A DNA stretch of 64,000 nucleotides from Vulcanimicrobiales bacterium (GCA_038215615.1 JBBQQR010000011.1:1-64000); one strand, 5' to 3'. Shown: positions 27,496 through 31,519, numbered from the stretch's first letter. The notes: a model not told the origin generated them from the letters alone. A program made the numbers and translations.

Positions 27496-28151
27496 TGCTG
27501 GCACTGGTTTTTGTTCTTGCAGCCGCAGCGGCTCCCGCGACGCCGGCCGATGGTGCATACACGTACACGGTTTCCGTCGGCGGCGCATCGGCCGGAAAAA
27601 CGACGATTCAATTAACGCACACGGCCGGCGGTGTCCAACTCACCGAAGCGGCTTCAGCCAGTTACGGCGGAGCCGATTTTGCCGGCACTTCTACGTTGGA
27701 TCTGGACGAAAAGCTGGCGCCCGCGGGTTACACTGCCGTGTACAGTCCGCCGGGCCGAACGGTCCACGCGTCGCTTACCTTCAAGGGAAAGACGGCGAAC
27801 GAGAGCGCGGATAACGGCAACATGGCCTTCACGCTTGGGCCAAACACCAAAAACTTCGCAGTGCTCGACGGCACGATGTTTGCCGGATTCTTCATCTTGC
27901 CGGCGCAGTTGCGCGCCTGGAGCACGCAGTCTTTTACGGCGGTCTCGCCCATGTTCGGGCACGGCGGTGCAATCGCGCTCGACGCCGCGCTCAAAGCGGA
28001 TCGGCCCAAGGATGTGCCGGCCGCTGATTTGCCGCTCTCCGTGAGCGACCCGGTCGAGTTTACGCTTTGGTACGATCCGGCGACGCTCATCGTCGACGAG
28101 TTGGTCGTGCCGCAACAAGACGCCACCTACTCGCGGCTACGCGCGCGTTAG
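27492..28151 (+). CDS. Secreted hypothetical protein
   Basis: Signal peptide, beta-rich; SD GGAG. Confidence 0.7.
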   Translation: MMLALVFVLAAAAAPATPADGAYTYTVSVGGASAGKTTIQLTHTAGGVQLTEAASASYGGADFAGTSTLDLDEKLAPAGYTAVYSPPGRTVHASLTFKGKTANESADNGNMAFTLGPNTKNFAVLDGTMFAGFFILPAQLRAWSTQSFTAVSPMFGHGGAIALDAALKADRPKDVPAADLPLSVSDPVEFTLWYDPATLIVDELVVPQQDATYSRLRAR

Positions 28152-28955
28152 GAGCAGCTCCGAATAGGATTGGGTGAGCAGCGCCTCCGAATTGCATGCC
28201 ACAGGGCGCCTGCGGCGCGAGTCCAAACGCTGCACGCTGAATCCCCACTCCGCAAAGCGCCGCAGCTCCCCGGCGGGATCGTAACCCGCTTCGCGCAGAA
28301 ACGATGGGCAAAACTCGATCATCAGCATGAGCGGCTGCGATCTATCTCCAAAAAGTTTGGTGCCGCCGTTGAGTATCCAGGTCTCGGCGCCTTCCGCATC
28401 GATTTTCACGAAATCGAACGTCCGTCCGAGCTGATCGAGCAGGGCATCGACGGTGGTGACCACTACGGTGAGCGCTTCGCGTTCGGTTTCGCGAAGTTGC
28501 GGAATCTGCTGGAGATCGGCGACGAGCGTTCCTCCGCCCCTGTGTCGCTGCGCGCGGCGGAATTGTGCCGAACCCGGACTTTCGCCGACGGCGCGGCGAT
28601 CGACGGTAACGCGCGCGCCAAAGCCGTTGATCTCAACGTTATCTTCGGCGATCTGCGCGAGTTCGGGGTCGCATTCGAACGCATAAACCGAACCGGACGG
28701 TCCCGTCAAGTGCGCCATCAGAAGCGTAAAATAGCCGACGTTCGCGCCTACTTCAAGCACGCGCATCCCGCGCTTGAGGACGCGGCGCAGTGTCGCTTCC
28801 GTCCACTCTTCCCACACGCCGTCGAGGATGATGTGCGGGGAAATGCACACGTCGTTGGCGGCGACGTACATCTTTAAACCGCCGGCGGTGCGCGTCAATA
28901 CGCGGCCTCCACCGACATACGTGCCGGGCGTACGTGACATGACCATCGCTTGCAC
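28137..28955 (-). CDS. FkbM family methyltransferase
   Basis: EVGANVGYF, AFE, KIDAEGAE. Confidence 0.9.
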   Translation of the reverse strand: MQAMVMSRTPGTYVGGGRVLTRTAGGLKMYVAANDVCISPHIILDGVWEEWTEATLRRVLKRGMRVLEVGANVGYFTLLMAHLTGPSGSVYAFECDPELAQIAEDNVEINGFGARVTVDRRAVGESPGSAQFRRAQRHRGGGTLVADLQQIPQLRETEREALTVVVTTVDALLDQLGRTFDFVKIDAEGAETWILNGGTKLFGDRSQPLMLMIEFCPSFLREAGYDPAGELRRFAEWGFSVQRLDSRRRRPVACNSEALLTQSYSELLLTRA

Positions 28956-29026: not shown

Positions 29027-29533
29027 ATGAAGAAACTCGCGCTTGTTTTTGTAGCCCTTTTTGCGTTTAGCCTCGGGCTCTTGGGCTCCAAGCTCGTCTT
29101 GAAGCCCGCGGCGGCGTCCGCGCCGGCGGTGCCGTCGGCGGGCTGGACGCTGCATATCGATGCGCTCAAACATTTGGGATCGGGCCATCCCACCCAGGTA
29201 GCTCACCATTGGTGCAAAGCGGTAGCCGGCGGTTTGCTCGAGTGTCAGATCTATGACTCAGATGCTGCCAGTGCGCGTCTGATCGAGATCGAAACGATCG
29301 TTCCGGCGGCTGTCTACAAAGCGTTTTCAAAATCCGAGCAGGCGTTGTGGCATTACCACCGCACGGAAATTCCGAACGTGAGCGCAACGCTGCCGGGTAT
29401 GCCGGTCGCACTGCAAAAGAAAGTGGTCGCCTCGCTGCTCGAAACCTACGGCAAGCTGTGGATGCTCTGGAATCCGCTCGACACGACAGGCGGCTGGCCG
29501 ACGGGAAAGCCGGCGGTCATCATTTTAAAGTAG
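29027..29533 (+). CDS. Exported DUF1264/OBAP-like protein
   Basis: Signal peptide; AHHWC, CQIYDS, LIEIE, LWHYHRTEI, TYGK. Confidence 0.8.
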   Translation: MKKLALVFVALFAFSLGLLGSKLVLKPAAASAPAVPSAGWTLHIDALKHLGSGHPTQVAHHWCKAVAGGLLECQIYDSDAASARLIEIETIVPAAVYKAFSKSEQALWHYHRTEIPNVSATLPGMPVALQKKVVASLLETYGKLWMLWNPLDTTGGWPTGKPAVIILK

Positions 29534-29558: not shown

Positions 29559-29580
29559 GACGGCGCCGTTAGGCGCCGTC
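29559..29580. terminator. Probable bidirectional terminator
   Basis: GACGGCGCC-GTTA-GGCGCCGTC between convergent genes, with T-rich runs on both strands. Confidence 0.6.
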
Positions 29581-31002
29581 TTCTTTTAATATCGATGGCG
29601 CCATAACGGCGTCGCTCATGCCGTGGATGAGTCGCTTGTCGGCGGGGGCCACGGTTGCGAGGATCCCGCCCAAGCGTGTCTCGTCGCCGACGATGAAGAA
29701 GTAAGGGCAGAGCCGTACGCGGCCTTCAAACGTGCGGATTTCGTCGGCGGCGCGGTCGAGATACGTTTGCCGGACGCGCTTTCCCTTATAAAAGCGCTGG
29801 AGGATGCGTGGCGTCGTCTCGTATTCGCGCACGGCTTCCTGAAGCGTTGCCACCCATTCTTCTTTGGTGAGGTCGTTGGCGACGCGCACGCCGCGCGAGC
29901 CCCACGCGAGCTCCGAGAATCCGGATGGCTTGATAACGTAATCGCGTTCCGATTTCGTCAGTTCGGCAAGTTGCATCCAGTCGGAAACGGGCGCGCCGTT
30001 GGCTTCGAGTCCGGCGATCACCGCCTGCGGCGGAAGCGGGCGTGGATCGATGACCCACGTTTCAGGAAAAAGCTGTTTGAGGTGATCGTAAACGGCGACC
30101 CCGAACTCGGCCTTCCAAAGTTTCGCCAACTGCGGATGATGGAAGAGCGCAAACGCGAGTTTTTCTTCGAGCTGCGCTTTGGGAGGCGGCGTCATCGTCA
30201 CGCGGTTGTGGCGCGCAGAATACAGCATGAGCTCTTGCTTGGGAACGTTGAGTAAATCGAAGAGCTCGAAGTTGCGGTAGAGCGCATCGAGCTTTTCCTC
30301 GCGCCCGTCGGGCAGACGTACGAACAGCGCTTCTTCGGTGAAATAAATATCTTGGGGCCGGCACATGAACGCTTTCACGTTCGCGACGCGCGTCAGCGCC
30401 TGCGCCATCCACGTCATCTCCGGCCGATAATCGCCCGATTCGTCGGAAAGTACGATGGCGACCACCGGCTGGTCTTTTCCGGTTGCGGCGGAAAGCATCG
30501 CGCCGTACGAGCGCACGATGCCGTCGGCGCCGCCGATGCTTTCCATGCCCAGCTTGCAATACGCCTCGGACATTGCTCCCAGGAAACCCATGCCGCCCGG
30601 AACGCTGTCGAGTTCGCTCGCGATGAAGCCGTCGTCGGTCAGGATCAAGTCGGGGCGAATGATGCCGGGCAAATCTTGCCGGAAACGATTTTGCCGCGAC
30701 AGCCGGACGATGTGCTCGGGCTTTCCTTGGTCGAGGTACTCGGCGATGAACGCCGGAGCGGTTCCACGCACGCTGCGGTTGTAGAGCGCGTTGAGCGCGC
30801 GATAAAAAAGAAGGAGGTTGGCGCCGATCGTCTCGATCCGCGCAAGGGCCCGCGGCGACAAGGCGAACGGCTCGGGGCTGATGCGCCACGGGATCCGTTC
30901 GTCCGCTGTTTCGACCTTGAAGAGTCCGGACGGGATCGCGTCATACAGGAAATGCGCTTGGTCGCGAGCCGTGAGGTCGGGGGAATACGCCGTGCAGGCC
31001 AT
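29569..31002 (-). CDS. Stand-alone circularly permuted ATP-grasp-type ligase (Gsp-synthetase-like)
   Basis: IRPDLILTDDGFIASELDSVPGG (R.D..E), YVIKPSGFSELAWGSRGV, ILQRF. Confidence 0.7.
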   Translation of the reverse strand: MACTAYSPDLTARDQAHFLYDAIPSGLFKVETADERIPWRISPEPFALSPRALARIETIGANLLLFYRALNALYNRSVRGTAPAFIAEYLDQGKPEHIVRLSRQNRFRQDLPGIIRPDLILTDDGFIASELDSVPGGMGFLGAMSEAYCKLGMESIGGADGIVRSYGAMLSAATGKDQPVVAIVLSDESGDYRPEMTWMAQALTRVANVKAFMCRPQDIYFTEEALFVRLPDGREEKLDALYRNFELFDLLNVPKQELMLYSARHNRVTMTPPPKAQLEEKLAFALFHHPQLAKLWKAEFGVAVYDHLKQLFPETWVIDPRPLPPQAVIAGLEANGAPVSDWMQLAELTKSERDYVIKPSGFSELAWGSRGVRVANDLTKEEWVATLQEAVREYETTPRILQRFYKGKRVRQTYLDRAADEIRTFEGRVRLCPYFFIVGDETRLGGILATVAPADKRLIHGMSDAVMAPSILKEDGA

Positions 31003-31005
31003 CGT

Positions 31006-31068
31006 TTATGAGCCTCGACAGCCGTCGGGGATCTTGGACATGCCGAACGCTATGTAGAGCCGCCGCAT
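31006..31068 (-). CDS. 20-aa small ORF MRRLYIAFGMSKIPDGCRGS, candidate precursor or leader peptide
   Basis: Stop lies 3 nt before the ligase ATG; TATTTT -10-like box 6 nt upstream of an in-frame GTG (31071). Confidence 0.5.
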   Translation of the reverse strand: MRRLYIAFGMSKIPDGCRGS

Positions 31069-31120
31069 CACCACACTAAAATACCCTCATTCCCCGCTTC
31101 GGTTGCAGGGACGGGCGAGC

Positions 31121-31519
31121 CTATTTTATGGTGATGGCGCCGGGGGTGAGCAAGGCGCTCTCGACCCGCACGACCCCGCCACGGTAGACGAGCGTCAGGT
31201 GGAGGGTACCTTCCAGGCCGAGCCGCGCGAGGGCGACGTCCTCAATGACGCGCGAAACACTCTCGCCAGCGATGAACTGGAGCGTGCTCTGCAGTGAAAA
31301 CGAGCCGCGCGAGGTGCTGTAATTCTCGGTGACTTGCACGGGCAGATCGTGGCCGGCGGTCGCGGACATCTCGGCGGATACGCAGTAGCTCACCGTCAGC
31401 GGCACGCCTTTGACCGGCAGCGTCTCTCGCGTGCAACGGCTGCCTTGCGCCCAAGCCGCGCCGGTGGCGGAAAGAGCAAGGGCCAGAGCCAGAAGCGGGC
31501 GGCCGTAGATGTTGTTCAT
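31121..31519 (-). CDS. Secreted hypothetical protein
   Basis: Signal peptide ending AWA; Cys pair. Confidence 0.7.
   Translation of the reverse strand: MNNIYGRPLLALALALSATGAAWAQGSRCTRETLPVKGVPLTVSYCVSAEMSATAGHDLPVQVTENYSTSRGSFSLQSTLQFIAGESVSRVIEDVALARLGLEGTLHLTLVYRGGVVRVESALLTPGAITIK

Follow-up and report, generated by a model that had tools for sequence, protein, structure and literature searches.

A class-wide short ORF ahead of an unnamed circularly permuted ATP-grasp ligase is probably a regulatory leader

What is the role of an unannotated ORF of only 20 codons that stops three nucleotides before the start of an ATP-grasp-type ligase? The question is raised by a stretch of 64,000 nt of DNA from a Vulcanimicrobiales bacterium (hereafter, the window), for which a previous interpretation made from the letters of the DNA (the sequence-only reading) proposed that the short peptide and the ligase form a new peptide-modification system of the graspetide kind, with a regulatory leader peptide as the alternative. 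The locus comprises the following features:

31101..31106, minus strand: GCAACC, a −35-like element with a putative promoter role
31078..31083, minus strand: TATTTT, a −10-like element 17 nt 3′ of GCAACC
31006..31068, minus strand: the leader ORF, MRRLYIAFGMSKIPDGCRGS, 20 aa, a gene-like ORF that ends ACG short of the ligase ATG
31018..31020, minus strand: the leader Cys codon TGT, the proposed sensing codon, with a codon bias
31016..31027, minus strand: a weak 4-bp stem within the leader, CGAC-N4-GTCG, whose pairing is possible in most homologs
31013..31016, minus strand: GAGG, the Shine-Dalgarno-like (SD) motif of the ligase, inside the leader 3′ end, its first letter 4 nt past base 1 of the Cys codon
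29569..31002, minus strand: the ligase ORF, 477 aa, with Cys at codon 3, a circularly permuted ATP-grasp
29559..29580, minus strand: a terminator-like hairpin over the ligase stop, weakly conserved

Most of the layout initially described for this locus was found as stated. On the minus strand, the leader TAA is followed by ACG and then by the ligase ATG at 31002, which confirms a gap of 3 nt, whereas the frames open further upstream to in-frame GTGs at 31074 and 31071, the latter with the TATTTT box 6 nt ahead of it, as had been noticed; this box (31083-31078) was missed by a sigma-70 scan. The motifs ascribed to the ligase are also there, as R116-P-D118..E130, K358-P-S-G and L401-Q-R-F. The terminator proposed after the ligase stood only in part: a hairpin does exist at 29580-29559, but such sites occur at about chance frequency (6 versus 4.6 expected), and two of the four closest loci, L001 and L004, show no clear counterpart. 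This hairpin is probably shared with the convergent DUF1264 gene (29027-29533, plus strand), which, like an FkbM-type methyltransferase gene (28137-28955, minus strand), lies 3′ of the ligase in the window and outside the conserved unit. On the 5′ side, positions 31121-31519 (minus strand) encode a protein of 132 aa without a family match, with a hydrophobic N-terminus and a GAITIK-like tail, and in many class loci a protein of this type is encoded directly 5′ of the leader.

The reality of the ORF at 31068-31006, a central claim of the sequence-only reading, is well supported by its homologs. Among the best 80 of 224 confirmed relatives, 2 lacked upstream DNA, and a leader ORF precedes the ligase in 77 of the 78 usable ones, far above chance, in counts that are not independent given the shared ancestry of the sequences. 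The small ORF also shows the synonymous bias expected by that reading, with a pN/pS of 0.244 in frame versus 1.90 and 1.57 in the shifted frames (16-codon core, 73 unique sequences); the antisense frame in register gave 0.36 for the same 73 cores, an expected value because third positions are shared. The conserved core reads R-x-x-[YF]-x-x-[FLY]-x3-K-[IL]-P-x-x-C, with R, R, Y, I, A and K invariant in 78/78 (best 80 of 224). Leaders are 17 to 40 aa long and differ in length only C-terminal of the Cys, where the tail looks random and the C-terminus is unconserved, and the leader stop mostly falls between −1 and +20 nt from the ligase ATG. The three relative frames of leader and ligase occur 22, 22 and 34 times in the 78 sequences (the same frame in the window), and the leader is therefore not a broken N-terminal extension of the ligase; both an extension and readthrough were ruled out on these counts. 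A diverged form, M-x-[RH]-H-L-F-R-[YF]-L-x-x-P-K-[IL]-P-P-A-C, was found in 8 of 9 genomes of a sister order, so spaced that the basic, aromatic and K-I-P residues keep fixed distances across the two orders. One locus (L011:4871-4990) carries a GC-rich insert of ~60 nt at the Cys codon, which results in a leader of 40 aa without Cys that keeps the SD end. The leader peptides (19 of 27 long enough) gave no NCBIfam or Atlas match and two weak Pfam matches on one row, and no NCBIfam leader model fits them. A literature search of titles and abstract openings, with subscription journals largely outside its scope and supplements excluded, found nothing on the leader or the ligase family. Judged by these comparisons, the leader ORF is gene-like, unannotated and class-wide.

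The nature of the enzyme constrains what the peptide could be. The AF2 model of the ligase (pLDDT 94.8) matches homoglutathione/glutathione synthetase, YjfC/YgiC, GspS and Cp1B with Z of 22-26 over 320-415 residues (Foldseek, VIA), versus 9 or less for RimK, LysX and Ddl. As modelled, the enzyme is therefore a circularly permuted ATP-grasp of the glutathione-synthetase type, from an unnamed family, and the ATP-grasp identity first suggested from its motifs passed the fold check. The likeness in fold to these enzymes and to Mfla_0391 is whole-length. On the other hand, identity to the structural neighbours is only 10-16%, and searches of this genome (rated 100% complete, 54 contigs) found no GCS2, GshA, GshB or BshC, with no match to the gamma-Glu-Cys ligase families PF04107 and PF04262. 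Nor does it contain any match to Alpha-E (PF04168), an absence already indicated around the locus and now confirmed genome-wide, or to CP_ATPgrasp_2 (PF14403). The ligase itself has no Pfam, NCBIfam (E ≤ 1) or PDB sequence match; 3 of 72 family members weakly match CP_ATPgrasp_2 (best E 0.0025) and 2 match GSP_synth, and in the Atlas the clusters near it comprise some of the GSH_synth, GSP_synth and CP_ATPgrasp kinds. In the accessible part of PMC12568646, the R-x-D...E metal/acyl-phosphate motif of Cp1B is placed at R139, D141 and E163, which correspond to R116, D118 and E130 of the ligase; unlike Cp1B, the ligase has Asp132 at the place of Asn165. Residues R116, D118, E130, D132 and K358 are invariant or nearly so in the family. 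Moreover, the pocket is acid-rich, and 18 of its residues that were not used for sequence selection, among them E188, E195, R243, E246, D249, E279, E280, K281, K358 and R430, do not vary across 35 ligases with a leader, 14 with a mini ORF or none, and 65 distant ones. With an active site that does not change with or without the leader, the simplest reading is that a single substrate, not the leader, serves them all, and in the explanation favoured here the enzyme would be a housekeeping ATP-dependent amide ligase with one substrate across phyla.

The ligase family comprises no fewer than 7,769 clusters (90% identity; 8,000 candidates scored), with Atlas clusters headed by Verrucomicrobiota and Nitrospirota. 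A single match was found in each of the 92 sampled genomes of the class (Vulcanimicrobiota/Eremiobacterota), one of them split over contig ends, versus three weak matches in the other 58 of 150 phylum genomes; in these tallies, and in those of EpmA, KamA and the glutaredoxin-like gene given below, the unpublished genome G116 is counted once. The ligase is a near single-copy core gene whose neighbours are of the housekeeping kind, a conserved peptidase or transporter not being observed next to it, and it was absent from the viral contigs and plasmids searched. Remoter relatives of 440-470 aa (L120:3888-5279, L121:3665-5065 and L122:1891-3219) occur in other classes of the phylum, with E of about 1e-11 to 1e-13 to the profile and no NCBIfam name. 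Outside the phylum, a metagenome scan yielded at least 280 confirmed relatives; the best 80 were assigned, by nearest protein, to 50 Verrucomicrobia-like loci, 20 of a mixed clade, 9 Opitutae and 1 fragment, so that these clade names are putative. Among those best 80 of at least 280, the neighbours include proA at 14 loci, ruvA at 13 and prfB at 7, often directly coupled. In this genome, a possible 20-aa ORF ending PAPPGL, which may be a chance one, lies just before 29430 (plus strand) of contig G000:C13 and overlaps the start of a presumed release factor 3-like gene.

In contrast with the constancy of the ligase, the leader can be lost. Upstream DNA was surveyed in 91 of the 92 class genomes with a ligase (G116 left out), with 60 scored as full by script and the remaining 31 assigned to a class by eye, giving in all 77 with a full leader, 6 with a mini ORF, 6 with none and 2 with a degenerate one. 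The mini ORF reads M-R-C-R-x-x and its stop overlaps the ligase ATG as TGATG; it was found in all six sampled genomes of one genus (L095, L103, L219, L220, L235 and L237), and at L049 the peptide is M-A-C-K-R, these ORFs having five to six codons. They form a natural deletion series that points to the working part of the leader, or may be what is left of a leader in decay. When 5 genomes without leader were searched by pattern, no second copy was found elsewhere, with one match at 1 mismatch that lacks K-x-P. A quick tree (57 rows) puts the losses in three or more distinct places, two of them nested inside well-supported leader-keeping groups. Farther away, the leader motif occurs in none of the 63 distant loci with upstream DNA (from the best 80 of at least 280), where no other common short ORF was recognised by eye. 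The similar short ORFs that the sequence-only reading expected upstream of ligases in PVC bacteria were not found: ligase homologs exist there, but the motif is missing from all 63 distant loci. Altogether, these comparisons indicate that the leader is dispensable for the ligase family.

Such a dispensable peptide is hard to reconcile with the core of the sequence-only reading, in which the ligase would cross-link or extend the peptide as its RiPP precursor or scaffold. It is true that the leader is adjacent to the ligase, co-oriented with it and conserved, that its Lys is invariant and that the structural neighbours YgiC and YjfC are peptide-polyamine ligases according to the accessible part of PMC12568646. 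However, 14 of the 91 class genomes have lost the leader or keep it only in reduced or degenerate form, and its motif is absent from the distant loci, while the pocket stays the same in both cases. Acidic residues tell a similar story: Asp is present in 71 of 78 leaders of the main set (best 80 of 224), but neither Asp nor Glu is found in the conserved part of the 8 sister-order leaders (0/8), and the C-terminus is unconserved. The core status of the gene, its housekeeping neighbours and a fold that is not RimK-like (Z ≤ 9 vs 22-26) weigh in the same direction. Compared with graspetides, the locus does share an ATP-grasp enzyme and, beside it, a short ORF whose N-terminal motif is aromatic, but it differs, apparently, in the ATP-grasp subfold, and also in the absence of a conserved acidic residue, in a peptide that can be dispensed with and in a ligase that is a core gene. 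Graspetide synthetases are absent among the 50 fold matches listed, RimK-type enzymes score Z ≤ 9 and NCBIfam gave no match at E ≤ 1. The graspetide leader motif Phhx(1,2)h, as given in the accessible part of PMC8939145, is not in the N-terminal part of the leader. The peptide-modification proposal is not supported, and a precursor role for the leader is regarded as quite improbable.

The signals around the two ORFs offer a different view. Of the 74 sequences having the motif G[CA]AAC, 62 carry it 35-40 nt 5′ of the leader ATG, a distance that leaves room for few untranslated bases only, and 61 of 75 leaders have no SD before them. Promoter use, as suggested by the motif together with the missing SD, would produce a near-leaderless leader transcript. 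In genomes without leader, the promoter-like motif is directly before the ligase start in 5 of 6; in 4 genomes that lack the leader its distance from that start is 34-40 nt. As for the ligase, an SD motif precedes 75 of 78 (best 80 of 224), and in 58 of 68 it begins 4-12 nt downstream of base 1 of the leader Cys codon. Given the length of a ribosome footprint, the ligase SD falls within the span covered by a ribosome at that codon. A wider promoter regulon, sought with a matrix from 73 orthologous sites, was rejected: 98 of 2078 upstream regions versus 88 of 2000 random ones scored >10, and at >16 the numbers were 7 versus 2, with no clear enrichment, so that the motif is assigned to no sigma factor. 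The promoter-like motif of the leader was also observed just upstream of G000:C3:18425-18949, C4:118420-118848 and C23:5253-5657 (all minus strand), presumably an HslV-like gene and two small genes, and a stress regulon sharing this motif is possible.

The codon usage at the conserved Cys is strongly biased. It is TGT in 59 of the 60 unique peptides having Cys at this position, when TGT makes up 19% of Cys codons across the genome and, among first codons, 17 of 76; the single cysteine tRNA is tRNA-Cys(GCA). Within the main family this bias can stem instead from the 4-bp stem, all four pairs of which are possible in 63 of 78 leaders (best 80 of 224), though with no compensatory changes (RNAalifold: three pairs and no covariation over 27 rows, the L041 row being misplaced). 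The codon is also TGT in 8/8 sister-order leaders, where the stem partner is lost, and in 5/6 mini ORFs. One Cys is found in 56 of 78 leaders, two or more in 19 and none in 3 (best 80 of 224), the window having one, and tails hold 23 Cys in 219 residues. The ligase shows a Cys of its own at codon 3 in 78/78 (best 80 of 224), as TGT in 70 and as TGC in the window, compared with 8 of 1608 roughly called genes, and ligases without leader retain Cys3 or an equivalent Cys. The two do not always go together, since, in small numbers, five Cys-less leaders (L011, L018, L051, L110 and L257) precede ligases with Cys and two ligases without Cys follow leaders that have it. RNA-based control of other kinds was rejected. 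Against an SD-sequestering hairpin, SD pairing matched that of synonymous controls (0.29 vs 0.29) and fell below it in 34 of 73 sequences, and, regarding a riboswitch or known RNA, an Rfam search returned nothing near the gathering score.

Altogether, the dispensability of the leader, its Cys/TGT bias and its position over the ligase SD made the regulatory alternative the better supported of the two original options. It is probable that the leader is a cis-acting regulatory peptide on a near-leaderless mRNA that would set ligase translation, with cysteine as the probable signal. The ribosome would start at the leader ATG without an SD and, after the leader stop, pass on to the nearby ligase start. 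Under a shortage of Cys-tRNA it would pause near the leader end, most likely at the TGT codon, and by covering the ligase SD would prevent ligase synthesis; with that codon 4-12 nt before the SD, a paused ribosome would therefore keep the ligase from being made. The pause would probably be tuned by the R..Y..F...K-I-P stretch, then inside the exit tunnel, and the codon-3 Cys of the ligase may add a second pause point. We infer translation of the leader, promoter use, pausing, signal, sign of control and product alike, whereas the position of the leader, the selection on it, its dispensability and Cys/TGT bias, the ligase fold and the constant active site are observed. The invariant N-terminal R, Y, I, A and K would be the part least explained by cysteine sensing and would equally fit a binding motif.

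In this regard, the leader might act as a small protein partner that binds and regulates the ligase, for instance by inhibiting it or by linking its own Cys to Cys3 in a disulfide or metal bridge. Such a partner, which we consider unlikely, would account for the constant distances among the basic, aromatic and K-I-P residues in two orders and for Cys in both proteins, and tight co-translation would supply the two at 1:1. However, no ligase surface co-varies with leader presence beyond the reverse control (4 positions vs 4, both confounded by one genus), the TGT bias and the M-R-C-R mini ORFs would be left unexplained, and ligases that lack a leader still have Cys3 or its equivalent.

For a cis-acting regulatory leader, the closest precedent would be the mycobacterial polycysteine leaderless short ORFs of the Ms5788A type, which, in the accessible part of 10.1101/834739, have at least 2 consecutive Cys and where, at the locus dissected, pausing opens an SD-hiding duplex and turns the genes on. 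Both cases have a first ORF that is unannotated and, in the present case putatively, leaderless or nearly so, its Cys codons lie a short way ahead of the next gene's ribosome-binding site, and for both a role of pausing is proposed. As far as that source goes, the differences lie in the mostly single Cys of the leader, the lack of an SD-hiding structure, a switch that would go off instead of on, and a conserved N-terminal motif; the single Cys of most leaders weighs against likeness to a simple cysteine attenuator. A short motif with fixed spacing, a free tail and a position over the downstream SD are also features of the nascent-peptide arrest leaders TnaC, ErmCL, MgtL and SpeFL, to which no sequence likeness was found, and arrest in the present leader is hypothetical.

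What the ligase makes may be approached through its distant neighbours. In 16 of the 20 mixed-clade loci (best 80 of at least 280) a KamA-family radical SAM gene is 3′ of the ligase, and in 16 of the 20 a glutaredoxin/GST-N-like gene; as for exceptions, two contigs end within 150 nt, L152 has the glutaredoxin-like gene only, L176 KamA only and L136 neither. The resulting set, seen at L124, L126, L131, L137, L139, L146, L149, L162, L164, L167, L168, L173, L176, L179, L185 and L193, spans several divergent lineages, often with dCTP deaminase next, and is a candidate beta-lysine pathway. Mixed-clade KamA proteins score best, below the cut-off, with lysine 2,3-aminomutase, and have an Asp/Asp motif that we take to be of the lysine aminomutase type. 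A stand-alone LPG_synthase_C gene with a CxxCxxCC domain was observed upstream of the ligase in 7 mixed-clade loci; at L146:2918-4249 (minus strand) this aminoacyl-tRNA transferase-like gene is divergent from the ligase. In this genome, a glutaredoxin-like relative (WCGYC) is unlinked, at G000:C21:22290-22526 (L272), and is 55% identical to the L162 protein. With a single query, such proteins turned up in 58 of the 92 class genomes but in none of the 58 others, which is modest support because class-wide genes show a like pattern. KamA, present in 91 of 92 class genomes, is non-discriminating because it is also in 40 of 58 others and because here it adjoins the lysine-fermentation gene kdd.

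From these neighbours, the likeliest product that we infer is a small compound containing cysteine and/or beta-lysine. A more specific proposal, speculative and on balance unlikely, is that the family makes an undescribed low-molecular-weight thiol, for instance beta-lysyl-cysteine, in bacteria whose genomes yielded no glutathione or bacillithiol genes among those searched for, and that in this class an arrest leader of a new kind, with a single Cys codon, would stop its synthesis when cysteine is short. KamA would then supply beta-lysine and the glutaredoxin-like protein would use the product, whose beta-amide would resist peptidases, as the gamma-bond of glutathione does. Alternatively, beta-lysine could go to EF-P, with the ligase replacing EpmA and the K-I-P(P) leader sensing EF-P activity. 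The KamA genes 3′ of mixed-clade ligases would fit, as would the local EF-P loop (VKPGKG), the Pro-Pro of sister-order leaders, the lack of EpmA in all 151 phylum genomes and the statement, in the accessible part of PMC11388002, that for many EF-Ps the modifier is not known. However, EpmA is equally missing from classes without the ligase, hence non-discriminating, efp adjoins the ligase in 0 of 172 loci searched, the local KamA is the one beside kdd, and a stall that blocks the SD would turn the modifier off just when needed. In addition, Verrucomicrobiota, a main ligase-bearing group, are placed under lysine-EpmAB in that same part of PMC11388002, and IPD and IPP do not occur in the accessible parts of 10.1101/2024.08.03.606492 and 10.1101/2024.04.15.589488. 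A role in EF-P modification is accordingly the most remote of the explanations considered.

The case for leader and ligase as a RiPP class is weak. The leader would instead be a testable case of ribosome-based sensing, with a layout and probably a sign of control unlike those of known cysteine attenuators. The ligase family is large, is covered by neither a Pfam nor an NCBIfam model and has no relative of solved structure by sequence; it is core in one class and occurs in Verrucomicrobiota and Nitrospirota too. If the product is a new cellular thiol or beta-lysine conjugate, it would fill a gap in the redox and amine chemistry of soil and nitrifying bacteria.
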